Position numbers and translations under genes: made by a program
Notes under the pieces: model-generated
What the model was told of the DNA's origin: nothing
Database searches by the model: none
What the model saw: only the letters and a program-made list of their open reading frames with translations
DNA from: a virus
IMG/VR virus record: IMGVR_UViG_3300010396_000006
Location: 32,001-96,000 of that record
Length of the DNA: 64,000 bases
Strand: one strand, 5' to 3'
Shown: piece after piece, positions 6,201-50,482 of the stretch
Layout: every line of letters starts with the position of its first letter
Position numbering within the stretch: the first letter of the stretch is position 1

Positions 6201-8449
6201 CCGCGTTCACATCCGCCACGGCGGGAACCGACTATTCCGCCGGAACGAGCGGATTAACAACTGGGATTCTGAAAAGCACAACATCAACAGGGGTCTTGTC
6301 GATCGCGACGGCTGGTGATTTTCCGACGCTCAATCAGAATACAAGCGGACAAGCGGGAACCGTTGCGACGATTTCCGGTCTGATCGTTCAAGGCTCGAAT
6401 ATCATGATTACCGGGTCTGGCACATCCGGCAGTCCGTATTCCATTGCGGCAAGTGGAAGCGCGAATCCGACGTTCGATACTTTGACGAGCGGGACGAACA
6501 CAACAGCGGCAATGCTGGTTGGGACTGGTGCAAGCCTCGGCACGACCGGAACAGGAACGATCGCTGCGACAACAGTTGTCACGAATGCCAATCTCTCGGG
6601 AGTGGTCACAAGCGTCGGCAATACAACCTCGTTTGGATCGTTCACGTCAGCAACACTTGCAGCCGCTTTGAGCGATGAGACGGGAACGGGAGCGGCGGTC
6701 TTCGCGACATCCCCTACGCTGGTCACTCCAATCCTGGGGACGCCGACATCCGGCAATCTAGCCAACTGCACATTTCCGACACTGAATCAGAATACAACTG
6801 GTAATGCTGCGACGGTCACAACGAATGCAAATCTTTCGGGTGTCGTGACGAGTGTTGGCAATACGACATCATTCGGATCATTCATATCTGGGACATTGCG
6901 AGCGGCAATCACGGATTCGACTGGGACTGGCGCTGCGGTATTCGGGACATCACCAGCATTAAGCGGGACAGTTCTTCTCAGTTCTCAAGTAAAATTCAGT
7001 AGTCCTGCCAGTGGCGTGTTAATGCTCGCCAACTTTGCTGCAACAGGATTCACGGGAATTCAATATGGATCGGCAACAGCCGCTAATACGGCTGGATCGA
7101 ACGTCACTGAAACCGCCAGCTTGAGTACAGGAACCGGGGTTGCTGGAACGCTGGGCGTTGTGACGGGATTCGCAGGTGTCTCACAAGCCACGACAGTGAC
7201 AGTGACGATTGCAAATCCAGCGGTATTCTCTCTGACGGCCCACGGATTCGTTCCCGGTTCATCATTCACATTGACGACGACGGGAGCATTGCCAACCGGA
7301 TTGGCGACGGCCACAACGTACTATGTCATCGCGACTGGATTAACAGCGAATGCATTCCAAGCTTCTGCCACTCCAGCCGGTTCAGCAATCGTTACGACAG
7401 GATCTCAGTCGGGAACGCATACGCTGACATCGACGACAACTGTCCAGAATCCCGGTGCAACAATCGCGACATGGGGTCCATCAGCCAATACAGGTTCCCA
7501 AGCAATCAACTTGCTGAATCTTGCTCAAGTCTGGAATACCTCGTCATCCGTGACGGCCATCCTGATGAATATCACGATGGTCGCTGCTGGCGGTTCCAGT
7601 AATCTGATGGATCTGCAAGTCGGCGGTTCGTCAATGTTCAAAGTATCGACCGGCGGTAATATCACTAGTCTTGCGCTGACAACCAATACTTGGAATAACT
7701 CGAACGGGACTGTCTCGATCTGGCAAGGAGCAGCGAGTTCTAACAACGCAACATTCATGGTTGCTGCGACGACTCCGATCATGCGATGGGCTACATCGAC
7801 ATCGGCATCGTTCGGAATTAAGCGATCTGGAACGACGGCGGCGTTCCGTCTTGCTGACGACTCGGCTGATGCTCCAATTACAGCCGCGGCAGCAACCTTT
7901 AGCGGAACTGTCAATAATACGACCCTGACCGCATCCAATATCGTGATGACGGATGGATCGAAGAATCTCACCAGTCTCGCCACGTTGACAGTCAGCAATG
8001 GGGGGACCGGCGTTGCGACACTGACAGGGATTGTCAAAGGGAATGGAACGAGTGCATTCTCGGCAGCGACGGCTGGAACAGATTTTGTCGCACCGGGTAC
8101 TGTTACGGCTTTCACGGCTCAGCAGTATTTCGCTGAACAAACTCTGATCGATGCCTCGACCATCACATGGAATGCGAACACGCAACAGGCGGCATTCGTG
8201 CTACTGACGAGTGCTGTCGGATCAACCCGTGTACTGGGCTTCCCGTCAAATATTCAAGCGGGAGCAACTTACACGATTGTCATCAAGCAAAGTTCCACCG
8301 GATCAAATGCGATCACTTATGGGGCCGGATATCTGTTTCCTGGCGGAACAGCTTTTGTTCTCAGTACAGCCAACAATGCGATTGATGTGCTGACATTCGT
8401 CTGTCATGGCAGCAATTTGCTCGGCGTTGGCCAAAAGGCATTCGCATAA
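3254..8449 (+). CDS. Long tail fibre / receptor-binding protein (1731 aa)
   Basis: T/G/S/A-rich beta repeats, RVLVKDQT...NGIF..W.LTR module, GGTG and YTLPIA..LGGVK fibre motifs, C-terminal Q.STG...LSTANNAIDVL domain. Confidence 0.85.
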   Translation: MTGVTAPDRFNGGEEVLFPPDQGTVGQAMVSLGNGQSAWQDVGTVRSVAVATANGFTGVSSGGPNPVLTLTYQLTAPGPSTLGGVNSIAAVSHQWISSITTAGQPILTQPAFADIAGLGSMAQQSAASVAITGGSITGMPSPVNASDVVTKAYCDAMTSNLSQKNACLVATTAQLTATYNNGSSGVGATLTNSGSQAALSIDSVVLPLNARVLVKDQTSNTFQNGIFSLTNQGSGSTNWVLTRTSDFDGSIGPNGGITAGSYTVIQSGSVNAGTLWVETGEGPFTVGTTPILFTKLSAASQTLTLTGDVTGTGAASIAVTVTQINGVALGNTAATAGHLLIGSGTNWASQTVGGDGTLNSSGSLTITKTNGVNFTSAATTAIGTSGATIPLLNAENTWSAQQDYTTGVSLTSGHALLLNGSADQNWRLGLGINAYTVTTVGSTTSIQVVYGSGSSGPDGMAFGPTGGSSTLELRGDDNSAYFRGPVRMANYSTGVAQFDGSGNLSSGPYAASAATLLGSVLNSTVVTSSLTSVGTIGTGTWQGSVVAGQYGGTGVANTGLTLTLSANNAVSSWAITGNAVASVSPIQITGTIFSGTNAVPYMLISPTGTTLTFPWSSLGTMLAANLSAGFVGDYLNLRRSGQTSPDFIFSSTGAITYGGNLVSKVPFNQFNDSVGLGVLSFDANYVWGFRNSTLGPNELRVYGTYSNGANYERLVIRTAAGTHTIGTENAGTGVARALNIETAGTTAIAIDTSQNVSVSSLTASRPVGTDGSKNLVSLTITGTGAAVLSTGPTLTNPIVGTQSPGDNSTKAASTAYVATAVSNAAYTLPIASTSILGGVKVDGTTITINGSGVISSTGGGSGTVTTISVTANNGITQSVSNPTTTPNITLGLGNITPTSVSTGTVTLTGTLALKNGSNANILNLQAGVTASTITFTLPTADGTVGQTLITDGSQNWSFGTLSVAGGGTGAMTLTGLVKGNGTSAFTSATAGTDYSAGTSGLTTGILKSTTSTGVLSIATAGDFPTLNQNTSGQAGTVATISGLIVQGSNIMITGSGTSGSPYSIAASGSANPTFDTLTSGTNTTAAMLVGTGASLGTTGTGTIAATTVVTNANLSGVVTSVGNTTSFGSFTSATLAAALSDETGTGAAVFATSPTLVTPILGTPTSGNLANCTFPTLNQNTTGNAATVTTNANLSGVVTSVGNTTSFGSFISGTLRAAITDSTGTGAAVFGTSPALSGTVLLSSQVKFSSPASGVLMLANFAATGFTGIQYGSATAANTAGSNVTETASLSTGTGVAGTLGVVTGFAGVSQATTVTVTIANPAVFSLTAHGFVPGSSFTLTTTGALPTGLATATTYYVIATGLTANAFQASATPAGSAIVTTGSQSGTHTLTSTTTVQNPGATIATWGPSANTGSQAINLLNLAQVWNTSSSVTAILMNITMVAAGGSSNLMDLQVGGSSMFKVSTGGNITSLALTTNTWNNSNGTVSIWQGAASSNNATFMVAATTPIMRWATSTSASFGIKRSGTTAAFRLADDSADAPITAAAATFSGTVNNTTLTASNIVMTDGSKNLTSLATLTVSNGGTGVATLTGIVKGNGTSAFSAATAGTDFVAPGTVTAFTAQQYFAEQTLIDASTITWNANTQQAAFVLLTSAVGSTRVLGFPSNIQAGATYTIVIKQSSTGSNAITYGAGYLFPGGTAFVLSTANNAIDVLTFVCHGSNLLGVGQKAFA

Positions 8450-19576: not shown

Positions 19577-21325
19577 ATGACAGTCTATGGCAGTGTGTGC
19601 GTGAGTGTTCCAACCGGTCCATCGTCAACGAAAAGCTTCTCGTTTGGGGTCCCAGGCGAGATCGTGGATCGGATGTGTGCAAGACCGGATATTGAATGGG
19701 AACCCCAATTCAAGGCGATGGTCAACAAGGCAATCAACGGGCCACCGATCGAATCAGACAATAAGGAAGAACTGAAACCGCCATTCGTTTCCGGCCAGAA
19801 AGTGATCTGCGTTCTGAACAGCAAAAATCTCGGCGGATTGACTGTCGGTGAGGAATATACGATCTGGAGATGCTTGAAGGACTCGATGATGTCGAGCGGC
19901 TTCAAATGCGAACTCAAGGAAAAGATGGTGGGCCAGATGTATTGTGCATCGCTGTTCAAAGCGAAGTCGGAGTCTGGAAAACTGTCAAACGATGAACCAC
20001 CATTCCAAGTCGGCGATCATGTTGAGATGCTCAAAGAGAGAGATCAAAAACCAACCGGGGTTGCCAGTCTCGTAGTTACGGGCGTTCGTTCACCGGAGCA
20101 GATGGCGGGGCATTGGACGCTTCCAGGCGTCAAGGCAAACGAAGGTGAGTGGTTTGTGTCGTGCGATCCAAAATGCACTGCATGGGGACCGGCAGGATAT
20201 TTTCGCAAGGCGTTCTTACCGCCATTCGCAGTCGGTGAGGAAGTGTTGGCGAATTACAACTTTTGGTCTGACTTGAATACGCTGGCTTCTGCAATCCAGA
20301 TCCACGAGAACAAGCCATATCGAATTAGAGCAATCCAAAAGGAAGTCGACTGCAATTCCGGTTGGAAAGTCTGGGTGGAAGGACAGCAAGGCGGTTGCGA
20401 TGCGTCGAAGTTCAGGAAGATGGATTCAATCGGAGAACAAATACGAAAGTCGCTCGAAGGAACATATCGCAATGCCCAGGAACTTATTGATTTTGAAGTC
20501 GGCCATGAAGCGGCAATTGCGAGAACGAACTATTTCGCATATCACGGACCGTTCGAAAGCGGCGATTTGCGATGGGGCCAAGTCAATATTGGCGAAAGAC
20601 GTCGATGGTTGAACGCCGCGAAAGCTGTCGAAGCAATCGTGAAAGATTGTGACGAATTTCGTATCGCCAATTCGATCGAAGAACTGATCCAGCAGAACAG
20701 CGGACCGGAAGATCTGAACCTCGAAGCTGGCGTGAACAAACTGGAACTGGCGTTGCAGTGGGTGAAAGATCGGATTGTCCACGAAAAGGCGAAGATCGCA
20801 CCGCAACCGTTCCAAGTCGGAGAAGTAGTTCAGGCTGTTGAAAACGTGATGAGCGGAAACGGAAAAGGAACTGTCGCCGCTGGTTGTCATATCAAAGTAT
20901 CGGCCTGCGAACGACGCAACCCTGATATCTGTCCTTCAGGCTGGATCGTGTATGCCGAAGATTGTGACCACTGGGGCGGATTCGATTCAGCGAAGTTCAA
21001 GAAAGATCCGATTGTTAATCCGGTCTCGACAGATCAATGGAAATTGCCCAATTCAGGGACTGTCAAATTCAGTCCCATCATTAATCCAAAACCAGGACAG
21101 ATCCCCATCTACAGGGGTGATGGTCAAGTTGAATGGATTGATCTTCCGAAAGATCAAACAAGATCGATAGCGTGGGAATACAGAGTAACTCCATGTCTGG
21201 ATGTCATTGATGAAGGATTTGATTCTGGCGTTGTCGACAGATTGAATAACAGCGGTGAAATCGGCTGGGAATTTGTAGCGTTCACTCCTATGACAGGACG
21301 AGCCGTATTCAAGCGCAGGAAGTGA
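19577..21325 (+). CDS. Multi-module hypothetical protein with four PF.xG.xV (SH3-like) repeats
   Basis: PPFVSGQKV, PPFQVGDHV, PPFAVGEEV, QPFQVGEVV, each ending ..F(K/R)(A/K). Confidence 0.7.
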   Translation: MTVYGSVCVSVPTGPSSTKSFSFGVPGEIVDRMCARPDIEWEPQFKAMVNKAINGPPIESDNKEELKPPFVSGQKVICVLNSKNLGGLTVGEEYTIWRCLKDSMMSSGFKCELKEKMVGQMYCASLFKAKSESGKLSNDEPPFQVGDHVEMLKERDQKPTGVASLVVTGVRSPEQMAGHWTLPGVKANEGEWFVSCDPKCTAWGPAGYFRKAFLPPFAVGEEVLANYNFWSDLNTLASAIQIHENKPYRIRAIQKEVDCNSGWKVWVEGQQGGCDASKFRKMDSIGEQIRKSLEGTYRNAQELIDFEVGHEAAIARTNYFAYHGPFESGDLRWGQVNIGERRRWLNAAKAVEAIVKDCDEFRIANSIEELIQQNSGPEDLNLEAGVNKLELALQWVKDRIVHEKAKIAPQPFQVGEVVQAVENVMSGNGKGTVAAGCHIKVSACERRNPDICPSGWIVYAEDCDHWGGFDSAKFKKDPIVNPVSTDQWKLPNSGTVKFSPIINPKPGQIPIYRGDGQVEWIDLPKDQTRSIAWEYRVTPCLDVIDEGFDSGVVDRLNNSGEIGWEFVAFTPMTGRAVFKRRK

Positions 21326-21329
21326 CGCC

Positions 21330-21533
21330 ATGATCGATGTCACCGCAATCCAATGTCCAGAGTGCGATCATCTCCCATTGAAGATCATCCATCAGTCGGA
21401 AGAACAGATCGTCGCCAAATGTCGCAATTGCGGGAATGACTGGATCATCACGGTCAAGACGGTCGTTTTATCGGAGTCGGAAATTGAGGCCGGACAAGAT
21501 GATGCTGTTGAAATCACAGACATGCCGTTCTGA
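21330..21533 (+). CDS. Zn-ribbon protein
   Basis: CPEC..CRNC. Confidence 0.6.
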   Translation: MIDVTAIQCPECDHLPLKIIHQSEEQIVAKCRNCGNDWIITVKTVVLSESEIEAGQDDAVEITDMPF

Positions 21534-21560
21534 GAGGGAGAGTGAATCATCTGCGACGAA

Positions 21561-21839
21561 ATGAGTTCCGAAGAACGCTACGCCATGCATGAGGATATGG
21601 CGGATAAAATCACCGATGCATGCGCCGAATTGTTCCCCGAAGATGGAATGTGTGCTGATGTTTTATTCGCGTTGCTGACGGCTGCGTCATGGGGAGCGTT
21701 ATTTCTCATTGATATGCCGCCGGATCAAAAACAAAGGTTCGTTAATAACGGCGTCGTGCCGGAACTCGTTGCCACCGCTTCATGTGCGATACGAGAACGA
21801 TTAGAAAAGATGCGTGTTGCTGACAATAGCCGAAACTAA
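21561..21839 (+). CDS. Hypothetical helical protein
   Basis: ORF lies within the operon. Confidence 0.55.
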   Translation: MSSEERYAMHEDMADKITDACAELFPEDGMCADVLFALLTAASWGALFLIDMPPDQKQRFVNNGVVPELVATASCAIRERLEKMRVADNSRN

Positions 21840-21854
21840 ATGAGGAGTGAATTA

Positions 21855-22574
21855 ATGGGAACGCAAGTTTGGAATGTGGCATCGCTGCTCGTCATGACGT
21901 CTATGTTCATTGGCTTGGCGACAATGCTCTATCGAGCATTCCGTCATCAACCGGACGTGAAGACTCCAGAAGATCCATACGGATTCGGTTGCAAGCCAAC
22001 GCCGATTCAATTGAGAGTCCTGAAATCAACGGCTGACATCGTGATCTATTGCGGGCCTGCTGGATCTGGAAAGAGCATGCTGATGCGAATGGCCGCAATG
22101 ATGCGAGCCAGGTTGTATCCGTCACAGCCTATCCTCACGTTCTGGTTTCAGCAGCGAGAAACGTGGGAAATGTTGGACAAGCACATTCCGTCAATTCGCG
22201 TGATCGGCCTCAAAGGCATCAATGAGGCTTGTGATCAATTTGCGGGAGTTGCGGCCCACACGATTTGCATCGACGGGATTGACTGGATCAGGGAAGAGTC
22301 GTTCTGGTTTCTGCTGTCGCGGTTGCGATCGAACGATTCGAACGTCAATCCGCAAATGTTCTGCTCAATGGATCGTCTTACAGATCCAAAGCCGCTATGG
22401 CTCGCAAAGCTGGTGAAGCATTGGGAGGAACCAGCAGACGGAATCGGCATTCGTGGAAAGCGGAATGGAATCCGTCACTTCCAAAGGATTGACGGCAATT
22501 TGCATCTTGTGGATATCACAAAGCATGATGCGTTGCTCAGCAAGCCGATCTCGATCGAATACATCCAAGGATGA
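21855..22574 (+). CDS. Membrane-anchored degenerate terminase ATPase-domain paralog
   Basis: Colinear similarity to the TerL N-terminal half; Walker A GPAGSGKS; N-terminal TM helix; GAGGAG RBS. Confidence 0.75.
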   Translation: MGTQVWNVASLLVMTSMFIGLATMLYRAFRHQPDVKTPEDPYGFGCKPTPIQLRVLKSTADIVIYCGPAGSGKSMLMRMAAMMRARLYPSQPILTFWFQQRETWEMLDKHIPSIRVIGLKGINEACDQFAGVAAHTICIDGIDWIREESFWFLLSRLRSNDSNVNPQMFCSMDRLTDPKPLWLAKLVKHWEEPADGIGIRGKRNGIRHFQRIDGNLHLVDITKHDALLSKPISIEYIQG

Positions 22575-23976: not shown

Positions 23977-26900
23977 ATGTCACAAATCATGAGCCGACGC
24001 CGCAACCGCAACCGTCGCGTTGAGAACTATCGCAAGAATTCGGATCGGGTTGTTGAGCATCCAAATGTTCCGGCCCCCGAACTGAACGACTCCCAAATCA
24101 AGTCGATGGCGTCTCAGATGCGGGCGGCTCTGGCCGGAAGCTTCGGCGGCGCTCAAGTCACGAATCACCGCGAAGAAGCTCTCCACTATGAGGGCAATAG
24201 CTACGTCAATATCGCGGCCATCTGCGCCCAAATGATGATGGTGACGATAACAGCCTATGTCGACGGATCGAACCAGCTTCGACAGCAGTCGGTCCGGAAG
24301 TCGCTGCGAGGTCTCGTCGGAAGCCGATGGAAGTCTCAATATGGGGTTGATGAGGCATCGTCGAAGCAACTCGAATCAGACCATTACCTGATGCGATTGC
24401 TGTCGAAGCCAAATCCGCACGAACCGGGCAGCATGTTCCGGTATCGGCAAACTCTTCAACTCAGGCTCACTGGAGGTGCGTTCCTGTGGAACGTCCCAAA
24501 TATCAACGGCCGGACGTGCGAACGGTACGTCATCCCCACCACATGCCTGACGCCGGTCTATCCAGACAACACGTTGCCGTACGGTGGTTATCGCGTTCAA
24601 CCAAACTGTATGCGATGGATTCCACTGGTTGACGATGGATTCGTGATCGGGACCCCGGCCCTGATGCGAGTGTTGGGCATGATCATTGATGCCCGAGAAA
24701 TCCAAAAGGTTGGCTATCCACATCCGATCTGGCTGGATGACTTCCAAAGCCCGATGTCTGCTGGCGCTCAGTGGGTCGATGCCGAACGATCGATCAACAT
24801 CGCACGGGCAATGGGCATCAGCCGCGGCATGAATCCGAGCGGTTTCCTTGAACTATCCAAAGAATACATGGGCATCGAACAAGATGCGCTGAACATCACT
24901 CAGCGGAAACTCGATCGACAATATGGCGGCGTCAACAACACGGGCAAGGTCATTGCCGTGGCTCCCGATACCAAGTTCACCGGATACGATCGAAGCCCGA
25001 AAGACATGGAATACCATGAAGGGTACTTGGATCACCGGGAAGCGAATCAGTCTCTACACGGCGTTCATCCGATCATCACTGGCGGACAGCCCCCCGGCGC
25101 ATACGCGGCCTACTACGCCGCCATGCGAGCATTCGACAACAACACGTTGACTCCCATTTGTGACATGCTGGCGGAATCAGACACGTTCCACATTGCACCG
25201 CAATTCGGCGAAGGGATCACGATCGAGATCGAGCCAAAGCCGATCAACGATGAGGACGAACTGAATTCACGTCTCCAGGTCGATGGTCAATTGGGGATCA
25301 TCAAGGTCAATGAAGCGCGAGCATTGCGAGGAATGCCGCCATTGGACGGAGCGCAAGGAGAAAAGCTGTGCGGACCGACTTCAAAGGATAAGGTTGGTCA
25401 GGATCAAGACAGCGACAATCCATCCAAGCCGAAGAAACCAAAGCAGTCTGGCGATGCGCCGTCAACTCCCGAGGTCCAAGAAGCCGAACAAGCGGACGTC
25501 CCCAAGGCTCCCGAAAATCCCATCGTCGGCAAGAGTGAATCAAAATCACTTCAAGCCGCAATGGAAGGGATGAAGGAGGCGGACGAAGACTACATTCAAG
25601 AAATAGTTGCCAAGGCGTTGGATTCGCGACTGAAGGCGATGCAACCTGCCGAGAAGCCAAAGCGGAAGTATTCCTCGACGCAGTTTGATCTGCCTGCCGG
25701 TCTCGCCGAAAAAGTGCAGGAGATGGCAGCCCTGATCAATCCGGCCGATCTCGCATCGGATGGAATCGAAGAAAATCCGCACGTGACTTGCTTGTACGGG
25801 CTGACCGAAGAATCACCCAATGATGTCAAGAAAGCCGTCAAGGGAATCTCGGCCGGTCCGATCGTTCTTGAATCGCTGTCGTTGTTCCCGGCTGGTGACA
25901 AGCTTGCTCAGCATGGCGGCGAACAGTTCGACGTTTTGAAGATCAGCATCGGCGGAAAGTTCATTCACGAGATTCACAATGCGATCGCAGAATCGTGCGA
26001 GTATGAAACCGATTATGCCGACTATTCTCCTCACTGTACGATCGCCTACTTGAAGCCGGGAAAAGGCCGCAAGTATGTGACGATGAACAATCCAGTGGAT
26101 GGGATGACGTTCATTCCTGACAAGCTGATCTTCAGTAGCAAAAACCGAACGGTCTCGGCAATTCGATTGAGCGTTCTGAAATCAGTCGAAGAACAACCAT
26201 CAGAAGCTCAGATTACTGCCGGCAATTACAAAAAAGATCACATCACAATTCAGGGGCTAAGGATCTCAATCGAAAATCCGAAAGGATCTGTTCGAAGTGG
26301 TCGTGACGATGATGGCAATGAGTGGTCAACGAAAATGCGGAATGATTACGGCTACATCAAAGGAACGAAATCAGATTCCGATGGTGATCACATTGATGTC
26401 TTCGTTGGGCCAAATCCAAGTTCAGAATTGGTGTTCGTAATTGATCAGGTCAATCCGCAAAGCGGGCAACATGACGAACACAAATGCATGTTGGGATTCG
26501 ATTCGAAAGATCAAGCGAAGTCTGCCTATCTCGAAAACTATTCCAAGGGTTGGAAAGGCTTCGGCGGCATTACTCCAATGCACATGGATCAATTCAAGGA
26601 ATGGCTAGACAGCGGAGATTCATCAAAAGGAATCGCGAGAAAATCTCTCACGGCAGCATTCTCCGAATCAGAAATGAAGGGCCACAATCCAATCAGCGAC
26701 ATCCAAGCCATTGGAAAGAGACTCGCTGAATCCGATTGTGGAATGCCCGGATACGGTCAGATCTTTATCAAGGAAAACGGATCTGGCCAAGCATGGTATG
26801 TCGGTGGCGACGGAGATGAACGAGGATTCGATAAGACTGTCATTCAAGAACTGAAGAAAGTCACGGGGATTGACGAAGTTCGTTATGAGTCTGAATCGTT

Positions 26901-29900
26901 CCCGCCCGATGGGGAAGGATGGATTCAGGTCTATCCGAAAGTGTCGAAGCGTAAATCTCTCGGCATGTCCGAAGGGATCGGGTCAGATGGAGGATTCGCC
27001 GTCGCTTCCGAAGACGAACGATGCCCAAAATGTCCCAAATGCGGATCACGGGAAACGCATCATGCTAGAACTGATGGCACAGGGAACGCGATCTGTAGCA
27101 ATTGCAAATCAATTTTCACTGATCCTGATTATGGAAAACAGAAATCAGTTTCGTTTCCATCGTCAGAAGTCGTACCGGGCAACAACGGCCATCAATTCCC
27201 CAAGAACACATTGATTCTTGGTGGGGATCAAGTTCTGATGCCACCAGAGTCAGAACTCAAATCCAAATGGATCACGATTCATCCTGGGGGAGACAAAGAC
27301 GCAACTGGCATTCACATCCTGATTGACGAAGACGGCGAAATCAAAGGCGGTCCGGCCGAACTGCGAGACAAAGGCATCCGCAAGATGTCTGACTTCGGGA
27401 AAGAAGACCTGAAGCCAGTCAAACCAAAAGACAATCACGAGAAGGCCGCATTCAACGCCAGCAAGCGAGCCGATCAAGCATCCGCCGATGCTAAAGAGTC
27501 GGGCGACCTGTTCGACCATATTGCGGCTAAAGAAGCCCACATGCACGCCGCAGCCCATCACAGCAAAGGCGGCAATGAAGATCAGGCGTCATATCACAGA
27601 AAGGCGGCTCAACAGCACGGTTCAGCCGCGACACCAACGGCTCCAGCGTCAAACGGACAACTGAGCGACGAAAAGATCATCCAGGCAATGAAGCCATCCG
27701 TTGATCGCAGCGGCATGGTTGAGGCCGAAGAACTGCGATCGATGCCAGAATTCGCTGGGATGTCGAAAGAGAAATTCGACCAACGAATGATGGACATGGC
27801 CAAAGTTGATCAGCCGGGCGGACCGAAGGTCTCGTTGCACCGATACGACCGAGCCGAATCGCTGTCAGCGGACGATAAAAAAAAGATGATCTTCGATCCG
27901 GATGCGCCGGCACGATTCGAAGATGGACAAAAGGGAGCGTATTACAATGCGGTCTCCATCCGCAAATCGTTGTCAGAAATGAAATCGCATTGGATTACGA
28001 TCCATCCTCATGGCGATGAGCATGATGGAACGCACGTTTTGATCGATGGAGAAGGGAATATCGAAGGCGGTCCCGAAGGACTGGCGAAACGTGGGATTCA
28101 CAAGCTGTCCGACTTTGGGAAAGGCGGCGAATCAGCAGACAAACCACACGAAACCCGTGAAGAGTGGGCGAAGAGACATTCCGATGCCGCCGATCATTGG
28201 TTACATGGAGTGAACAATGATCTGGCAGCCGTGCATCAAGAACACGGCGACTTGATCACAAAAAAGCACATGACGGACAGCTTTCGAAATCACGTCAATA
28301 CCGGAAGAATGACCCCAGATCAATATGAGGATCATGTTTCTAAGGGAACCATTCTCGGTGGACACGATTACGAACGCGCTCAGCATGTCGAGCAGAAAAT
28401 CCATGAGATCAAAAATCGTCCGCTAACTGTCCCGGAGCCAGATGGAAAGCATCCATACGTTGAACCGCCCGCCAAGCCGCCGGAAGAAAAGCCAGAAATC
28501 CGACCAGACATCGACGCTCCGATCAGCAAGAAAGACACGCCTCGCGAAACGGCGGCAAAGCAAAAGAAGATTGACGATGATTATGCGTTTGCTCGCAATT
28601 CATCCATCCCGAATGTCGGCGAAGATGTTGCCGATTCGGCTCGTCACAAGCGAAATGCTTGGCGTGGATTGGAAGATGCGGAATCCAATGGAACCGCCGA
28701 ATCAATGGTGACTCGTGATAATCTGCTCAAGGCCGAACCGCACAACTTGATGTCTCATGCCGGAAAACATCCACTGACATCACTGGCCATGCATTACGCG
28801 ATGAGATCGTTCCCAGCGAAACCATCCAGCAATCGCGAAGTGGCCAATGCCAGCGATCGGAAGGACTATCACGAAGCGTATCAGAGCATCAAAGCAAAAG
28901 CCGAGCATCTGGCGGAAACAGAATCCGATCCACGGGCAGCCGCAGAGAAGCTACGAGAACACGTCGGCAATCATCTGAAGGGATTGAGGGAGCGGAAGAT
29001 TCCCGGACCCACAATTCCCGTGGCCGATCGATACAACAAGACCGCGAACAATTTGGTTGGAATGCACAAGGCGTTACGATTCGCCAGCTACGGCCGACCA
29101 TCGGCAAATAGCGTTCATGGCAAGATGGAAGAGTTCTCAAAGGCGATGGCCGGGAAATATGGACTTCCAGAAAAGTATGAACCTGAAGCGGCCAAGCAAT
29201 TCGCCTCCCATATTGAGACTCACGCCAAGGACATTATTGACGGGAAATCGCTTCCACAGTCATTTGGCATTAAGGGAGAAAAGAAAAACGAATTTAATCC
29301 TGCCGATCGATACGTCAAGCATGCTGAACGAGCCGGGGGCAAGGATGTCAGTCACCAAACCGCAACGGGAGTCTCGGCGGCAAACTCCGTCGTAAACGAC
29401 TTCGGGATGCGTGGCGTCCAATGGGGTAACAGCGTCACTGACGACGAACGCCATCATCACGCTGCCAAGGTTGTCGAAGCGTTGACCGATCTGGCCGATA
29501 CTCTCGGCATCAAGCCGGCTGATCTCAGTCTCGGCGGAAAGCTGGCCTTGGCCATTGGCGCTCGCGGTAAGGGAACTGCCTCGGCTCATTACGAACCGCA
29601 TACCCAGGCCATCAACCTGACGCGGGCCAGCGGAGTCGGTACTCTCGCCCATGAGTGGGGACACGCCTTTGATCATTCACTGGAGAATTTCGCGAATCGT
29701 GCGACGAGTGCGGTCTATCACAGCGAAAACTATCGATCCAGTCCGGCAATGCAAAAGCTGACATCCGATTTCCGATCATCGGGATTCACGAATCGAATTC
29801 ATAGTGAGGTTCGTGATATGGTGCGTCAGGGCCTGATGTCGAAAAAGAAAGCGGAATACTGGCTATCAACCAGAGAACAATTCGCCCGTTGCTTCGAGAG

Positions 29901-30684
29901 TTATGTTCAACACAAGCTGGCTGACACGAATCAGAAGAATACGTATCTTGCTGGTCTGATTTCGGACGGCGGCTTGTGGCCGACCAAGGAAGAAACGGCC
30001 AAGATGGCCCCCGCTTTTGACAGTCTGTTCGCTGAATTCCGCAAACAAAAGTATGGAAGCGAAAATCGGATTGATCAGTCTCGATCGGAAATCAAATCGG
30101 CAGTCTTGGATTTGGTTGGTCAATCCGTCTTTAAATCGTCGCGATGGATCACAATCCATCCGCACGGTGAAGACGCGAAAGGCGTCCATATCCAGATCAA
30201 TGACGACGGCGAGATCCTGTCAGGTCCCGCACATCTTCGCGACAAGGGAATTACCCACATGGGGGATTTCGCGAAGCGGGGAAGCAATCAAGCGGCCGTG
30301 GACGAACTGAAGCCTCACGCTCTCGAATTCCTGACCGAGCAACACAAGCTGAGAGAACATCACAAAGCCGAAGCTCGCAAACTGACTGGCAAGAATGCCG
30401 GCAATCTGGCGATGTCGGAAAACAGCTATCACGATCATTCGGATGCTCATCGATTCGAGACCGCCGCTCGCACATTCGCCCGAGAGAATCCCGATGCTGG
30501 ATTGAATCCAGATGCTCACGACACGCCGGCCAAAGTCTGGGAGCTAATCCGGGAGGGCAAGAAGAAAGCCCCGCTGATCAATTCGAAGGAAGTCCACGAG
30601 ACAGCCAGAGCCTGGGTGAAGAATCACCGAACGAAGCGTGCGCCGGTAGGCACATACGAACACGATTCCGATTGGAACTTCTGA
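23977..30684 (+). CDS. Portal protein fused to polyvalent effector domains (2H phosphoesterase, InPase, Zn ribbon, 3x WITIHP repeat, LPD1 metallopeptidase)
   Basis: HK97-type portal motifs (LLSKPNP, L.LTGGAF, NEAR...MPPL); HVT/HCT; AGNYKK..ENPKGS.R.G..DGDHIDVF..DEHKCMLGF; GVQWGN..GARG..AHYEP..LAHEWGHAFD..FAR.FE.YV. Confidence 0.9.
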   Translation: MSQIMSRRRNRNRRVENYRKNSDRVVEHPNVPAPELNDSQIKSMASQMRAALAGSFGGAQVTNHREEALHYEGNSYVNIAAICAQMMMVTITAYVDGSNQLRQQSVRKSLRGLVGSRWKSQYGVDEASSKQLESDHYLMRLLSKPNPHEPGSMFRYRQTLQLRLTGGAFLWNVPNINGRTCERYVIPTTCLTPVYPDNTLPYGGYRVQPNCMRWIPLVDDGFVIGTPALMRVLGMIIDAREIQKVGYPHPIWLDDFQSPMSAGAQWVDAERSINIARAMGISRGMNPSGFLELSKEYMGIEQDALNITQRKLDRQYGGVNNTGKVIAVAPDTKFTGYDRSPKDMEYHEGYLDHREANQSLHGVHPIITGGQPPGAYAAYYAAMRAFDNNTLTPICDMLAESDTFHIAPQFGEGITIEIEPKPINDEDELNSRLQVDGQLGIIKVNEARALRGMPPLDGAQGEKLCGPTSKDKVGQDQDSDNPSKPKKPKQSGDAPSTPEVQEAEQADVPKAPENPIVGKSESKSLQAAMEGMKEADEDYIQEIVAKALDSRLKAMQPAEKPKRKYSSTQFDLPAGLAEKVQEMAALINPADLASDGIEENPHVTCLYGLTEESPNDVKKAVKGISAGPIVLESLSLFPAGDKLAQHGGEQFDVLKISIGGKFIHEIHNAIAESCEYETDYADYSPHCTIAYLKPGKGRKYVTMNNPVDGMTFIPDKLIFSSKNRTVSAIRLSVLKSVEEQPSEAQITAGNYKKDHITIQGLRISIENPKGSVRSGRDDDGNEWSTKMRNDYGYIKGTKSDSDGDHIDVFVGPNPSSELVFVIDQVNPQSGQHDEHKCMLGFDSKDQAKSAYLENYSKGWKGFGGITPMHMDQFKEWLDSGDSSKGIARKSLTAAFSESEMKGHNPISDIQAIGKRLAESDCGMPGYGQIFIKENGSGQAWYVGGDGDERGFDKTVIQELKKVTGIDEVRYESESFPPDGEGWIQVYPKVSKRKSLGMSEGIGSDGGFAVASEDERCPKCPKCGSRETHHARTDGTGNAICSNCKSIFTDPDYGKQKSVSFPSSEVVPGNNGHQFPKNTLILGGDQVLMPPESELKSKWITIHPGGDKDATGIHILIDEDGEIKGGPAELRDKGIRKMSDFGKEDLKPVKPKDNHEKAAFNASKRADQASADAKESGDLFDHIAAKEAHMHAAAHHSKGGNEDQASYHRKAAQQHGSAATPTAPASNGQLSDEKIIQAMKPSVDRSGMVEAEELRSMPEFAGMSKEKFDQRMMDMAKVDQPGGPKVSLHRYDRAESLSADDKKKMIFDPDAPARFEDGQKGAYYNAVSIRKSLSEMKSHWITIHPHGDEHDGTHVLIDGEGNIEGGPEGLAKRGIHKLSDFGKGGESADKPHETREEWAKRHSDAADHWLHGVNNDLAAVHQEHGDLITKKHMTDSFRNHVNTGRMTPDQYEDHVSKGTILGGHDYERAQHVEQKIHEIKNRPLTVPEPDGKHPYVEPPAKPPEEKPEIRPDIDAPISKKDTPRETAAKQKKIDDDYAFARNSSIPNVGEDVADSARHKRNAWRGLEDAESNGTAESMVTRDNLLKAEPHNLMSHAGKHPLTSLAMHYAMRSFPAKPSSNREVANASDRKDYHEAYQSIKAKAEHLAETESDPRAAAEKLREHVGNHLKGLRERKIPGPTIPVADRYNKTANNLVGMHKALRFASYGRPSANSVHGKMEEFSKAMAGKYGLPEKYEPEAAKQFASHIETHAKDIIDGKSLPQSFGIKGEKKNEFNPADRYVKHAERAGGKDVSHQTATGVSAANSVVNDFGMRGVQWGNSVTDDERHHHAAKVVEALTDLADTLGIKPADLSLGGKLALAIGARGKGTASAHYEPHTQAINLTRASGVGTLAHEWGHAFDHSLENFANRATSAVYHSENYRSSPAMQKLTSDFRSSGFTNRIHSEVRDMVRQGLMSKKKAEYWLSTREQFARCFESYVQHKLADTNQKNTYLAGLISDGGLWPTKEETAKMAPAFDSLFAEFRKQKYGSENRIDQSRSEIKSAVLDLVGQSVFKSSRWITIHPHGEDAKGVHIQINDDGEILSGPAHLRDKGITHMGDFAKRGSNQAAVDELKPHALEFLTEQHKLREHHKAEARKLTGKNAGNLAMSENSYHDHSDAHRFETAARTFARENPDAGLNPDAHDTPAKVWELIREGKKKAPLINSKEVHETARAWVKNHRTKRAPVGTYEHDSDWNF

Positions 30685-32050: not shown

Positions 32051-33416
32051 ATGTCGGATGATCTATTCCGCATCAATCCAAATGCATTCGACGATCCAGC
32101 GTTGGCGGCATGGCGTGACGAACTGATCAAAGTCGGGCCGATGCGAGTCGGGCTGCCAATCAAAACAGAAAGTGAAACCATGCCGAAATATGCATACAGA
32201 GCATCCAGCGGTGACTGTGAAATCGGGCATCATGTGACATGCGATCAGGACAAGGTGATCAGCCATGTCGTAAGCATGGTTCGACATTCGCGTTATCCAG
32301 ATCGATCAGACGCCATTGAGATTCACAACGATTCTACCGGGGAACACATCTGCATCTTGGCGTTCCACAAATCGCGGGTGATTGCGATCTATCCGAATTG
32401 CGTAACGACTTGGGCCAACGGATCAGAGTTATCTCTTAAATTGTTGGACGAACCAGTATCAGTCGATGCCAAATTCCACGACAACCGCATTGGGCAAAAG
32501 TGCTGGTATTATGTCTATGATTTCAAAGCCAGAGCCGCCGGCCCGTGGCTTCAAGGGTTCCTTCGCATGTGGGGAACCGACTTCATAGAGTTCGAAAGTG
32601 GTACTGGATTGTTTCCGATTGCCGTGATCGAGGATGATGAAACCGGAAAGTGTTGTTCTGTTCCGGTGGATCAAGTTCATTTCTCAGCAACAAAGCCAGA
32701 AAACGAGACGCCATGAACAAGGAACAGCGGGACGCATTGAAAGAAAAGATCGAAGAATTCGATGATCGAGAGAGGCGAATCGCGATCATCAAAGAAATCT
32801 TTCGACAATGCGAAGGTTCATCGCATTGCATGCACCTCAAGGATATGACGGATTTCTTGCGTGAGTGTGCGCCGGAGGAATCGGTCATGTTGGCCGTAGT
32901 CGCCTTGCGTCCGATTCTCCAGGCGATCTTGGAACGCGACATCAAGGCGATTCAGGAACTCCGTCCGGAACTCTGAAAGGCGGATTGCAGGATGCTCAAT
33001 CGTTTACTCGCATGGTTCAGGCTGAATGGATCGAAAATCGGAACCTATTCTGAGTTTGAAGATTGCTGGCTCGGCTATTATGGAAAGCCGATTTATGAGC
33101 CACCGGCCATGATCGAAGCCGCAAAACAGCAGATCATCGACCGAGACGGCACAATCAACGAGATTCGCAATCTGTATGGATTGCCGTCATTGATCCAATT
33201 TGAAAGGCCTTATTCGTCATGTGGGACCGAGATCGCATCAGACAAGCCGCAATGAAGCTCTGTCGCATCCGTGGCCTCAATCCGAACGAAGTGATCCAGG
33301 CCGCATGCCCAGAGATTGAGAACGACAAGAACGTCTATATGTGGGAATCGGTCGTTGGTGAGATCCGCCGAGCCGTGGAAGTTCAGGAAGCAATCGAGTT
33401 CGCGAAAGGCCTGTAA
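32051..33416 (+). other. Four hypothetical genes (32051-32716, 32713-32976, 32992-33255, 33252-33416)
   Basis: Tightly packed ORFs with ATGA overlaps. Confidence 0.6.
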
Positions 33417-33450
33417 CTCAATTGCGTCATCTAAAACAGGAAAGATTCCA

Positions 33451-34125
33451 ATGTACGAACGATTCACGGATCGGGCCGCGAAAATAATGCAATTGGCCAA
33501 TCAAGAAGCCCAGCGATTCAATCATGAATACATCGGGACCGAACATATTCTGTTGGGACTCGTGAAAGAGGGTTCAGGTGTTGCGTCAAACGTCTTGAGA
33601 AATCTGGACATCGACTTACGCAAGATCCGCTTGGAAGTTGAAAAGATGGTCGGAAGCGGTCCCGATATGATCACAATGGGAAAGCTGCCTCGGACGCCAG
33701 GGGCGAAGCGGGTTGTTGAACTGGCGATCGAGTCCGCGAATGCACTCGGGACAAATTACGTCGGGACCGAACATCTGTTGCTTGGTCTGATCGGCGAGAG
33801 TGAAGGCATTGCGTTCCAAGTGTTGCAGAAACTTGGTGCTACAAATGACAAGGTGATTGCCGAGTGGGAATCGCTGATGGGCCAGACAGCGCCCGGCAGA
33901 TCAACAAAGCCAGTTCGGGAACCACTGGCGTTTGTTTTCGCGAATTATCCCCAAGCGTACGTTCCGATATTCGATACGCCGCGGAGCATGCCTCCGGTCA
34001 TGGAGGAAGTGATCACGATTCTCGGCGTGTCCATGTGGAACGGTCGGGAATGGGTCTCGCGCTTCGGTGCCAAATGCGACCAGAAGTTGATCAAATGGTG
34101 GATACCGTTGTTCAATGTGGTTTGA
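33451..34125 (+). CDS. Stand-alone ClpC N-terminal (Clp repeat) domain fused to an unrelated short C-terminus
   Basis: MYERFTDRA.KIMQLANQEAQRFNHEYIGTEHILLGL...YVGTEHLLLGL; no AAA+ domain. Confidence 0.9.
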   Translation: MYERFTDRAAKIMQLANQEAQRFNHEYIGTEHILLGLVKEGSGVASNVLRNLDIDLRKIRLEVEKMVGSGPDMITMGKLPRTPGAKRVVELAIESANALGTNYVGTEHLLLGLIGESEGIAFQVLQKLGATNDKVIAEWESLMGQTAPGRSTKPVREPLAFVFANYPQAYVPIFDTPRSMPPVMEEVITILGVSMWNGREWVSRFGAKCDQKLIKWWIPLFNVV

Positions 34126-47601: not shown

Positions 47602-49026
47602 ATGAGCAGTCTTGCACCAAACCTTATCGACTCGCTGAATGCATTTGATGAGTACCGAGGTGCAGGACGGTTCTACAGACTGAAGTCCAGCGACGGTCAA
47701 GATGCTCTCGCCCTAGACAGAGTTCTTACGAGATCTTCGATTGACCCGACCCGGATGTATGTTCAAGCCGTTGTTAGCAACACAAATCCCGACGATGTCG
47801 GCGATATCCTGCAACCAAGAGGGTTTGATCTCAGTCGCTACGAATTGAATCCAGTTTGGCTTTGGGAACACGGATTAGATCCGGCCATCCCGTTGCCAAT
47901 CGCCAGCGCGGAAGGGCCTGACGGTCGACTTGATTTGCAGATCAGCGAAACGGAAGTCACAGCCGGTTCCTACTTCTCGCAAAGCTACCCTGCCGCAGTC
48001 CAGATTTTTCAACTGATCGATGAAGGAATTATCCGGTCCGTCAGCGTTAGGGAAAAGCCTCTCGTCACTCCTCGACAAGTTTTGAAGTCAGGTCAGTGGG
48101 TCAACATCGTTGATCGGTGTTTACTCGAAGAGATCAGTTGGTGCCGTATGGGCGTCAACATGACGGCTGTTCGCAAATGCCTTGATCGAAACAGACTCGA
48201 CGGTCGGCCAATTCTCGAACCAATTTTCAAATCCTTGTCCGCTTGTGTGCCGCGTCAATCGAAACCCGGAATCGGATGGAAGTCAAAAATGCGAATGCCA
48301 AACGACATGGATGACGACGGCGAAACAAAAGATGTGACCGCAGCGGAGCAAGCCAAATTGTCAGCCAAAAAATCAGCCGACGCGGATGGCAAGGAAAAAG
48401 ACGCCGAAACGAAGCCTGCTGATGAAGTCGCGACGGGCGATGCAGACGGACCAACGCCGGAACCTGAAAGCATGGACCCAAGCCAGCGCCCACTCGGCAG
48501 CCAGATCCTGAAGTCGATGCATCAAGGCATCAAGGACGTTTGTAAAGCGGCGGAATCCTGCACCGGACCCATGCTCGAACATGAAGGCGTCAAGAAAGAC
48601 GCGACCGACATGTGCGGCGAATTGCGGTCTCATCTGAAATCGCTCGAAGGTTCGCACGCCAAACACTATCCGAAAATGAAATCCGACCTGAAGTCGGACG
48701 ACATGGATGATGAAGGCGGTGACGATGAAGGCGGCGATGACTCCGCGATGAAGTCGTTCTTGGCTCTGTCGGTCTCGCATCAACGATCCGTGGGCGGCGT
48801 CACATATCGCCTCAAATCACTGCTGTCCGAGGCCAACATCACTCCAGACCAAAAGCGAATCATCAACAGCGATGTCAAGTTCCTTGAACGTCTGGAATCA
48901 GAATCAGAATCGCTGCACAAATCACAATTGAAATCCAAGTCCGCCAATTCGGAACCTGAATTGACTGCCGAGCAGTTGAAGGAAGCCGAAGAACTGATGG
49001 CGAAACTCAGTCCCGCAAAATCTTAA
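47602..49026 (+). CDS. HK97-type prohead protease with long C-terminal scaffold-like region
   Basis: D.VGDIL.P.G..NPVWLWEH..GIIRSVSV..LEEISW. Confidence 0.88.
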   Translation: MSSLAPNLIDSLNAFDEYRGAGRFYRLKSSDGQDALALDRVLTRSSIDPTRMYVQAVVSNTNPDDVGDILQPRGFDLSRYELNPVWLWEHGLDPAIPLPIASAEGPDGRLDLQISETEVTAGSYFSQSYPAAVQIFQLIDEGIIRSVSVREKPLVTPRQVLKSGQWVNIVDRCLLEEISWCRMGVNMTAVRKCLDRNRLDGRPILEPIFKSLSACVPRQSKPGIGWKSKMRMPNDMDDDGETKDVTAAEQAKLSAKKSADADGKEKDAETKPADEVATGDADGPTPEPESMDPSQRPLGSQILKSMHQGIKDVCKAAESCTGPMLEHEGVKKDATDMCGELRSHLKSLEGSHAKHYPKMKSDLKSDDMDDEGGDDEGGDDSAMKSFLALSVSHQRSVGGVTYRLKSLLSEANITPDQKRIINSDVKFLERLESESESLHKSQLKSKSANSEPELTAEQLKEAEELMAKLSPAKS

Positions 49027-49108: not shown

Positions 49109-50482
49109 ATGCCCGCTCCCACATCTGCCGAACTTCTCGAAATGAGCAAAACCGCAATTCAGCGAGCTGAAAAGGCTGAATCGGCGTTGAAGTCGTTGCA
49201 AGACAAAGTCGAAGCGACTCCGTCCATTCATGCCCACGGTTCGCGCGACAATGGCGCTGAAGGCTGGTGGGAAGAAGCCGGTGCGGATTCACCGGAACTG
49301 ACGATGCTTTCCGGCTATCAAGGCCGTGTTCCGCAGGCGAGTCCGTCTCGTGGTTCCATGAAAAAGTCGATGTCGATTCTGAAATCGATCGGCTATCGCC
49401 CGGCCGGCCGTCAGGTCAGCACATTCAAATCGATCTCCGACTGGATTCGCCAGGGGATGCAAAAGGACGGCGAAGGGACCGCCAAGTTCCGCGACAACAT
49501 GTATGCCCACATGAAGGAATACGATTCCCAAATGAAGGCATTGGGAATGTCGGAAGGCATCGCGTCTGACGGCGGATTCGGTGTGATTCCCGAATTCAAC
49601 CTGAAGATTCACGAGCATCTTTACAGCAACAACATCCTTTCCCGCACGGACGGCTATACCGTCACCGGGAACAACATGGCGTTTCTGGCGAATGCCGAAA
49701 CCAGCCGCGTCACCGGCAGTCGAGCCGGGGGTATCCAAGGCAATTGGGTGGGTGAAGGTGGAACTTATTTGCCATCCAAGCCAACCGTCCGTCAGATCAA
49801 TCTGCGTTTGCAGAAACTGCAAGTGCTGGTCTATCTGACCGACGAATTGATCAATGACAATTCCATCGCGCTCGAACAATACGTGATGCGGAAGGCGTCC
49901 GAGGAATTCGCTTGGCTGATTGCTGATGCCATCTTCAACGGCAATAACGTCGGCAAACCGCTGGGAATCCAGAATGCCCTGTCGCTGCTGGCAATCGCCA
50001 AGGAAAGCGGTCAGGCCGATACGACCATCGTCGCTCAGAACATCATCAAGATGCAGAATCGGCTGTTCGCACCATACATGCAGAATGCATCGTGGTTCGT
50101 GAACCAAGACACGATTCAGCAGTTGATGCAACTCACCTTGGCAACCGGAACCTATTCCGGCCAACTGGTCTACCAACCGCCAACCGGGCTGGCTGGTCTG
50201 CCATACGGTACGCTCGGCGGTCGACCCGTCGAACCGATCGAATTCGCCAAAACGCTGGGGACTCAAGGCGATATCACGCTGGCCGATCTCAGCCAAGTGT
50301 TGTCGATCAGCAAAGGCGGAATCGAACAGGCCACGTCAATGCACGTCGCGTTCTTGACCGACGAAATGGCGTTGCGGTTCACGATGCGTATGAACGCGAT
50401 GCCGTGGGAAAACAGCCCGATCACCCCAGCCAACGGAACGAACACCCAATCGTCATTCGTCACCTTGGCTAGCCGTCCATAG
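49109..50482 (+). CDS. Major capsid protein (HK97 fold) with ~143-aa delta domain
   Basis: DGGFGVIPE, WVGEG, TDELI.D, I.NG..VGKPLGI, TL.GRPV, DEMALRF..R. Confidence 0.95.
   Translation: MPAPTSAELLEMSKTAIQRAEKAESALKSLQDKVEATPSIHAHGSRDNGAEGWWEEAGADSPELTMLSGYQGRVPQASPSRGSMKKSMSILKSIGYRPAGRQVSTFKSISDWIRQGMQKDGEGTAKFRDNMYAHMKEYDSQMKALGMSEGIASDGGFGVIPEFNLKIHEHLYSNNILSRTDGYTVTGNNMAFLANAETSRVTGSRAGGIQGNWVGEGGTYLPSKPTVRQINLRLQKLQVLVYLTDELINDNSIALEQYVMRKASEEFAWLIADAIFNGNNVGKPLGIQNALSLLAIAKESGQADTTIVAQNIIKMQNRLFAPYMQNASWFVNQDTIQQLMQLTLATGTYSGQLVYQPPTGLAGLPYGTLGGRPVEPIEFAKTLGTQGDITLADLSQVLSISKGGIEQATSMHVAFLTDEMALRFTMRMNAMPWENSPITPANGTNTQSSFVTLASRP

Follow-up and report, generated by a model that had tools for sequence, protein, structure and literature searches.

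What could a short module do that is found three times in one giant phage protein, each time in front of a different segment? This question is raised by a 64,000-nucleotide stretch of viral DNA (hereafter the window), which covers bases 32001-96000 of the virus record IMGVR_UViG_3300010396_000006 of IMG/VR, a complete record of 105,647 bp with terminal repeats. One open reading frame (ORF) of the window encodes a portal protein fused to a long series of other domains. An earlier note, made from the sequence alone, had pointed out in it three repeats starting with the motif WITIHP, each located directly after a Lys-Ser (KS) site, and had proposed that cleavage at these sites would leave every repeat at a new N-terminus, where it would serve as an ejection or targeting leader. 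Here, we find that the WITIHP module (W) is a widespread domain family, and we weigh what it may do in the heads of tailed phages.

The polyprotein and its three modules

The translation of 23977-30684 confirmed the three repeats, whose starts at positions 27259, 27982, and 30133 are the Lys of K-S-K-W, K-S-H-W, and K-S-S-R-W, respectively. The protein has 2235 amino acids (aa) and consists, in this order, of a portal, a 2H domain, an InPase, a Zn-ribbon, and three W modules (W#1 to W#3), each followed by a cargo segment (c1 to c3), the second of which comprises a zincin-like region and an LPD1 domain.

23977..30684, + strand: portal-fused polyvalent protein, 2235 aa (ORF list, translation, and Pfam, PHROG, and NCBIfam matches)
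aa 129-452: Phage_portal (Pfam, E 2e-22)
aa 600-695: weak 2H phosphoesterase (2.2e-4, below the Pfam cut-off)
aa 743-877: InPase (1.4e-57)
26953..27003, + strand: copy of the likely capsid maturation site at aa 992, R-K-S-L-G-M-S-E-G-I-G-S-D-G-G-F-A
aa 1018-1049: Zn-ribbon (library match)
27250..27405, + strand: W#1, aa 1092-1143, preceded by E-L-K-S-K (Lys at nucleotide 27259)
27406..27972, + strand: c1, aa 1144-1332, ending with I-R-K-S-L-S-E-M-K-S
27973..28125, + strand: W#2, aa 1333-1383, preceded by E-M-K-S-H
28126..30123, + strand: c2, aa 1384-2049, with a HEWGH metallopeptidase-like region and LPD1
aa ~1865-2024: HEWGH zincin-like region plus LPD1 (library searches)
aa 1955-2024: LPD1 (PF18796, 5.8e-14); the NCBIfam CLCA_X-like match is below its cut-off
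30124..30279, + strand: W#3, aa 2050-2101, preceded by S-E-I-K-S...V-F-K-S-S-R
30280..30681, + strand: c3, aa 2102-2235, a conserved helical domain of ~130 aa

By its make-up, the protein belongs to the phage-type polyvalent proteins described by Iyer et al. 2017 (PMC5512222). It carries at least two effector-type domains in one chain (InPase, LPD1, the weak 2H, and the HEWGH zincin-like region), and it is linked to the packaging system, both by the portal fusion and by the genes for capsid, MuF, and scaffold-like proteins within the window.

The three modules are 47-49% identical in pairwise comparisons over 69 aa, and 61-63% identical over a 52-aa core, with 22 invariant positions. Their nucleotide identity is 54-65%, and the identical residues are encoded by differing codons in 14 of 27, 17 of 30, and 13 of 21 cases, i.e., in more than half of them. 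A recent duplication or a repeat artefact can be discarded, as the synonymous divergence is too high. Since nucleotide identity is low and codons differ, it is the protein sequence of W that is conserved, and the alignments thus identify the modules as old copies kept by selection on the protein. We found no further copy in the window nor in the whole genome.

As the note had also claimed, each module precedes a different segment, with no BLASTP similarity among c1, c2, and c3. The first of these, c1, has neither a family match nor a relative among the 149 clusters of W proteins described below. The zincin/LPD1 unit of c2 follows a module in at least six other proteins. The commonest partner of W is c3, which comes directly after it in more than 20 other proteins, including a stand-alone protein of 222 aa. 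This segment has invariant Glu, Asp, and Arg residues and the motif ...D-P-D-A-H-D-T-P-A-K-V-W-E-L-I-R-E-G-K, and gave no family match.

W is a widespread domain family

To characterize the module, we searched a profile of the three copies against 1.84 billion representative proteins. This revealed 149 clusters at E<=1e-3, of which 34 at E<=1e-10, far above what is expected by chance. One round of iteration on these 149 proteins gave 227 instances of W, with one copy in 99 proteins, two in 32, three in 14, four in 4, and six in 1. The core of the domain reads W-[IV]-T-x-x-P/G-x-G ... G-x-[HP]-V-x-[IV]-[DN]-x-x-G-x-I-x-x-G and is followed by P-x-x-L-x-x-K-G-I-x-x-L-S-D-F-G-K or M-G-G-K-F-N-G-K. 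Both His residues of the module (in WITIHP and in G-x-H) are replaced in many members, and no potentially catalytic residue is invariant. Since neither His is invariant across the family, a catalytic role of W is unlikely and was rejected.

None of the three copies matched Pfam, even at E<=10, or NCBIfam. The sole library match was to the PHROG family phrog_25904 (function unknown), at profile positions 19-56 of 416. The ESM Atlas gave no usable match, and BFVD gave only weak ones, to a protein of Bacillus phage SP-15 and to a DUF5710 protein, which are probably members of the family. Hence, W is a real and widespread domain family that is absent from Pfam and NCBIfam. Its hosts are prophages from many phyla of bacteria as well as cultured phages. 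One subtype alone accounts for 221 IMG/VR loci; this subtype is also present in genomes labelled as Pasteurellaceae, Desulfovibrionaceae, Muribaculaceae, Clostridia, Planctomycetes, Enterobacter, Nitrosomonas, and others. With the subtype of the window itself, scans gave only five weak loci in viral collections and five in metagenome collections, a scan with the alignment of one subgroup gave none, and a tblastn search with W#3 plus c3 found no match among cultured phages. One low-sensitivity tblastn query with this IMG/VR subtype had no match in plasmids, which does not prove its absence from conjugative elements.

W is retained in portal-fused relatives that are only 37-49% identical to the 2235-aa protein. 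This suggests that the module remains useful to a cargo that a covalent link already holds at the portal.

Position of W and genomic context

In 95 of the 149 proteins, W first appears no more than 60 aa from the N-terminus, while its last copy is equally close to the C-terminus in only 17. Among the IMG/VR proteins, the module is at aa 8-48 in about 65 of 81 and directly behind a portal domain in about 12. It is present two to six times in polyvalent proteins linked to a portal or to MuF. The profile survey, which the note had suggested, thus places W at the N-terminus of stand-alone relatives and between the units of portal and MuF fusions, rather than at random positions in proteins foreign to the virion. 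That W is a genuine domain family sitting at the N-terminal edge of cargo units is, in our opinion, hardly in doubt.

What follows the module is highly diverse: 202 segments gave 77 similarity clusters and 63 singletons. The partners found with Pfam include the head proteins Phage_portal, Portal_Mu, Phage_portal_3, and Phage_Mu_F, as well as InPase, LPD1, LPD3, 2H, ART-PolyVal, ADPrib_exo_Tox, PBECR1/3, ddrB-ParB, Zeta_toxin, SNF2, and DUF5710. Typical architectures are portal-2H-W-c3-like-W-cargo (P0007), InPase-W-c3-like-W-cargo (P0009), and W-...-InPase (P0019). Units with W are more often fused to portals or encoded alone than fused to MuF, and fusion and fission of the same units are frequent.

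The genomic context was studied in 59 dereplicated IMG/VR loci, with genes identified by simple longest-ORF calls. The genes are usually arranged as TerL-portal-MuF-[W protein]-small head protein-capsid protein, and the W gene often follows the MuF gene with overlapping stop and start codons. In some loci, neighbouring separate genes each open with W (three genes in L090; also L089, L092, L074, and L094). Such tandems are the unfused counterpart of the 2235-aa polyprotein. Of the 55 W proteins from IMG/VR, 14 are DUF2213 proteins with the module at their head; PHROGs gives DUF2213 the label of a head maturation protease. The comparison of near-identical phages, L010 with L018 and L020, revealed that the leader and W are 89-94% identical over the first 81-95 aa, and that the similarity ends right after W, where differing cargo starts.

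A side observation concerns L012 (9206-11761) and L014 (9185-12334), where the leader M-N-T-Q-Q-R-A-I-L-S-K-A-R-R-L-L-A-M-D occurs twice per protein. Its second copy precedes W, and its first copy precedes a unit starting with E-W-D-E-S-K-H-P-R...G-x-F. This W-D-E-x-K-H-P-R unit may be a second, analogous junction module.

W is also carried by cultured phages, such as Vibrio phage 1.112.O (gene 26) and the Morganella phage Mecenats66 (OL614104.1, 35164-39279), whose ORF61, of 1371 aa, is annotated as a 'helicase' and carries W at aa 16-60. The gene lies between a minor head protein, whose stop codon overlaps the start of ORF61, and a prohead protease. A protein of Bordetella phage PHB04 that matches ORF61 is annotated likewise. 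We find it more likely that ORF61 is a DarB-like protein packaged in or delivered by the virion than a replication helicase.

Sites in front of W and head maturation

If W marks the edge of released units, the residues preceding it should resemble the sites cut during head maturation. In the 2235-aa protein, the KS sites described by the note turned out to be more specific: all three copies are preceded by [L/M/F]-K-S, two to four residues ahead of the Trp. This pattern occurs 1.24 times per 1000 aa in the other 143 genes of the phage, a rate from which simple arithmetic gives a probability below about 1e-6 of finding three such sites within four residues of the Trp by chance. Further KS sites are found, with no W, at the junctions between portal and 2H, 2H and InPase, and InPase and the next unit, and in the copy of the capsid site. 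As these junctions exist without W, the module is not needed for cleavage.

Three head genes of the phage are relevant to the comparison with maturation substrates.

41249..42742, + strand: MuF-like minor head protein, extended at its C-terminus; two KS (aa 260 and 302), no W
47602..49026, + strand: 474-aa scaffold-like protein, directly upstream of the capsid gene
49109..50482, + strand: HK97-family major capsid protein; 4 of 4 KS lie in the N-terminal 107 aa (delta region)

The gp5 protein of phage HK97 is cleaved between Lys103 and Ser104, ahead of S-L-G-S-D. Because this cut resembles them, we regard M-K-A-L-G-M-S-E-G-I-A-S-D-G-G-F-G, at aa ~142 of the capsid protein, as the likely maturation site, and the R-K-S-L-G... 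stretch of the polyprotein as its copy. The capsid protein is probably cut after Lys143, and its predicted mature N-terminus, A-L-G-M-S-E..., would follow a Lys, as in HK97; the sites of the polyprotein are Lys-Ser, as in HK97. The many internal cuts that we predict in a portal fusion differ from the HK97 scheme.

In the 474-aa protein, a conserved domain makes up the N-terminal ~215 aa, and the C-terminal half is acidic. This protein contains 15 KS where 3.8 are expected, and 11 of them are [LMFIVW]KS. The density of [LMFIVW]KS per 1000 aa is 23.2 in this protein, 6.6 in the capsid protein, 3.1 in the polyprotein, and 1.24 in the other 143 genes. Given its gene position, its conserved motifs containing His and Ser, and its acidic tail rich in KS, we interpret it as a putative prohead protease-scaffold fusion.

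Other lineages have other motifs, and in each the motif is common to the head proteins and the stretch before W. The IMG/VR group has A-M-D (16 loci) or A-Q-D (at least 12) at a distance of three to five residues from the W that follows. Per 1000 aa, DUF2213 proteins of this group contain 4.7-5.5 A[MQ]D, capsid proteins 2.7, with all 28 sites at aa 19-59, and portal and MuF proteins 1.6-1.7, clustered at aa 33-63, against about 0.25 in TerL and all other genes. Where A-Q-D precedes W, the lineage shows A-Q-D at the N-terminus of its portal or MuF too, or in DUF2213 proteins. The two motifs do not mix: none of the four head proteins of the window's phage contains A[MQ]D, and [LMFIVW]KS is not enriched in the head proteins of the IMG/VR group. 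L097 has a third motif, E-x-Y-[AS], with six copies in the 533-aa product of the gene that follows the W gene, one copy where portal and InPase meet, and further copies 13-16 aa ahead of each W. Across the 149 clusters, the 25 residues leading up to W are enriched five-fold in the E-x-Y-[AS] class and three-fold in [LMFIV]KS. Finally, Mecenats66 has a scaffold-like ORF64 with 6-7 x-K-S, a capsid protein with M-M-K-S-L-T at about aa 31, and the leader M-I-K-A-S in ORF61.

DUF2213 proteins deserve a comment of their own. Several A[MQ]D are found in the C-terminal halves of those encoded in the IMG/VR loci L009-L088. This pattern resembles that of a protease-scaffold fusion degraded at maturation, and A[MQ]D may be the cleavage specificity of this little-characterized family.

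In summary, three motifs are each common to head-maturation substrates and to the stretch before W, and we therefore read this stretch as a maturation site. Cleavage just upstream of W is thus probable, in line with the new N-terminus that the note had predicted: the edge position of W and the co-variation of the motif agree with it, and the cut itself is a prediction in silico. It is unlikely that W is specific for one protease, as it occurs with at least three motifs, both with DUF2213 and with the different scaffold-like protein of this phage.

Predicted structure of W

AlphaFold, given an alignment of 85 sequences of W alone, predicted three strands and two short helices with a predicted local distance difference test score (pLDDT) of 74. 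The same fold was obtained when W was modelled together with c3 (pLDDT 83-88 for W, and >90 over most of the length of c3), and the last helix of W then continues into the first long helix of c3. The residues preceding W have low confidence in both models (pLDDT about 60). The C-terminal half of the module is predicted to be a short helix-turn-helix, which may be akin to a helix-hairpin-helix motif. Comparison with solved structures found no clear relative, the best values being an E of 2.1 with Foldseek in the PDB and a Z of 3.3 with VIA-align among 48,161 chains, for a model with a pLDDT of only 74. A PDB sequence profile search with W and a PDB structure search with the model of W plus c3 gave no match either. 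The mean net charge of W is 0.06 per 45 aa, while its flanks are slightly basic (about +1 per 25 aa).

Proposed role of W and alternatives

We propose that W is a small independent domain of ~45 aa marking the N-terminal edge of proteins, or segments of proteins, that are loaded into the capsids of tailed phages. In the phage of the window, W plus c1, W plus the zincin/LPD1 unit, and W plus c3 are fused behind portal-2H-InPase-Zn-ribbon, and the head-maturation protease would cut this chain after the Lys of [L/M/F]-K|S, so that only 1-3 residues would precede each W in the new fragments. Relatives encode these units as separate genes, with a short, putatively cleavable leader before W, between the portal/MuF and the protease, scaffold, or capsid genes, or have them fused to portal, MuF, or DUF2213 proteins. 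W itself would be a non-catalytic docking handle, tying its unit non-covalently to a conserved component of the portal vertex (portal, MuF, or the DNA end). Such a handle would load the stand-alone units, and would keep the released fragments placed for an early exit with the DNA. We give this explanation as a whole a probability of roughly 45%. Its last part, a docking role inside the head at the portal vertex, is put forward tentatively.

Several points weigh against this proposal. Within the same polyprotein, the 2H, InPase, and Zn-ribbon units are flanked by KS and lack W; hence, the module is needed neither for cleavage nor, presumably, for the delivery of every cargo. The MuF-like protein has an extension (~240 aa, unknown family) that follows Y-K-S-L and F-K-S-F and carries no W; this extension is a candidate for further cargo. 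A unit joined to the portal needs no loading handle, so that docking must lean on a role after cleavage. The lack of a net positive charge disfavours binding of W to DNA. The protease is itself putative: the 474-aa protein has no PDB match, as a single sequence or as a profile, its six homologues have no precomputed Pfam family, and it is not similar to the annotated prohead protease of Mecenats66. The evidence from motifs comes from few lineages, simple gene calls, and our own motif definitions, and the strict A[MQ]D precedes W in only about half of the IMG/VR loci. We found no virion proteomics for Mecenats66 or Bordetella phage PHB04, and cleavage, presence in the virion, and the partner and function of W are inferred in silico.

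One may go further and suppose that W, with its cleavable leader, is a general cargo handle of tailed phages, sufficient for loading at the portal vertex and for delivery to the host of any protein attached to it, and that the motif before W reveals the specificity of the maturation protease. W would then be the capsid counterpart of a secretion-signal domain. We consider this broader version speculative and rather unlikely.

The idea of the note, that W is an ejection leader, remains a hypothesis. Under this explanation, the W exposed by cleavage would engage the channel of the portal or tail, or else the tape-measure protein, to lead the cargo into the cell. It agrees with the position of W, which is predicted to begin each released unit or to lie close to its start, and it accounts for W being kept in portal-fused units, where a pure loading signal would be redundant. 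Much of the cargo is also expected to act in the host (zincin/LPD1, SNF2 helicase, ParB-like proteins, ADP-ribosyltransferases, nucleases). Yet, the 2H and InPase units of the same polyprotein have no W and would need delivery too, ejection is not expected of the protease/scaffold-like DUF2213 proteins that W heads as well, and a folded beta-domain is not an obvious threading leader. What stands of the note's proposal is the place of W at the N-terminal edge of cargo, behind a probable maturation motif; an obligatory leader is disfavoured by the units flanked by KS that lack W and by the DUF2213 proteins headed by it, and we find a leader role unlikely.

Could W simply be a handle for the exchange of cassettes, which also insulates the cargo from trimming by the protease and has no binding partner? 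The break of similarity between L010 and L018/L020 right after the leader and W is what such exchanges would produce, and the diversity of the cargo and the frequent fusion and fission of the same units fit as well. However, with a nucleotide identity of only 54-65%, recombination among the three modules of the polyprotein is not possible, and the conservation of the protein sequence across many bacterial phyla points to a function of the protein. We judge this explanation quite improbable; it is compatible with either a docking handle or a leader. Finally, it is very improbable that W acts after injection, bringing DNA-directed cargo such as helicases, ParB-like nucleases, zincin/LPD1, and ADP-ribosyltransferases to the incoming DNA or to the entry site while small-molecule cargo such as 2H and InPase needs no W: the units without W are indeed the nucleotide-degrading 2H and InPase and those led by W are not, half of the module is predicted to be a helix-turn-helix, and its flanks are slightly basic, but W itself is not basic, shows no clear resemblance to a solved DNA-binding fold, and also heads DUF2213 head proteins.

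Comparison with known systems

The docking handle proposed here can be compared with phage T4, where the capsid targeting sequence, an N-terminal peptide of ~10 residues, is present on proteins that are loaded in the prohead and later injected, and is cut off by the prohead protease. Both systems have an N-terminal element on capsid-loaded proteins and cleavage by a prohead protease (predicted in our case). In contrast to the T4 peptide, W is a predicted folded domain of ~45 aa, lies downstream of the predicted cut, and would be retained rather than removed. The short leader preceding W in stand-alone genes is thus a closer analogue of the T4 sequence than W itself.

In polymorphic toxins, pre-toxin domains (PT-VENN, PT-TG, and others) are conserved modules located N-terminal to variable cargo, where they serve as points of cassette exchange and sometimes of processing. 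W is likewise a conserved module directly N-terminal to variable cargo. It differs from them in that it has no sequence relationship to them (no Pfam match), is found in phage head modules and capsid-loaded contexts rather than in secreted toxins, occurs up to six times per protein, and has its predicted processing site before and not after it.

Temperate phages have MuF polymorphic toxins in which MuF and the toxin are in direct fusion, and a term search of Jamet et al. 2017 (PMC5576092) found no mention of a linker, a central domain, or cleavage. As in these toxins, variable effectors are attached here to a head-assembly protein encoded beside the portal gene. Units with W differ from them by their preference for portal fusions and stand-alone genes over MuF.

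Iyer et al. 2017 (PMC5512222) proposed that the units of polyvalent proteins are released proteolytically and delivered with the DNA, and saw the metallopeptidase within the protein itself as the main agent of this processing. The 2235-aa protein shares with them the portal fusion, the 2H, the InPase, the metallopeptidase-like region, and LPD1. Its sites, in contrast, match a head-maturation motif. W matches none of the LPD families in Pfam, a comparison that covers those of the 40 LPDs that are included in Pfam. Hence, it may be an LPD of Iyer et al. that never entered Pfam, e.g., the phage-only LPD4, and may already bear an LPD number.

Other genes of the phage

Other parts of the genome show unusual features. 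In the region 19577-22574, only a 244-aa ORF (21840-22574) matches the large terminase, at profile positions 255-344 of 642, while the 582-aa ORF at 19577-21325 has no family match. This may reflect a terminase that is split, interrupted, or highly divergent. At 3254-8449 lies another giant ORF (1731 aa), with no match in Pfam or PHROG and no W. The protein encoded at 33316-34125 has two Clp_N repeats (PF02861, E 4e-33) and corresponds to the N-terminal substrate- or adaptor-binding domain of Clp ATPases, without the ATPase.

Implications

To our knowledge, the choice of the proteins that are packed in capsids and injected is mechanistically detailed for very few systems, such as the internal proteins of T4 and the Dar proteins of P1. 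W provides a sequence marker for this type of cargo. It predicts mature N-termini, the tripeptide cut by the maturation protease of each phage, and genes for injected proteins that have escaped annotation. Many of the proteins that follow W belong to no known family and are candidate anti-defence effectors. If W does suffice for loading or delivery, phages could be engineered with it to carry proteins of choice. If it does not, it still defines the boundaries of the units of polyvalent proteins and corrects annotations such as the 'helicase' of Mecenats66.

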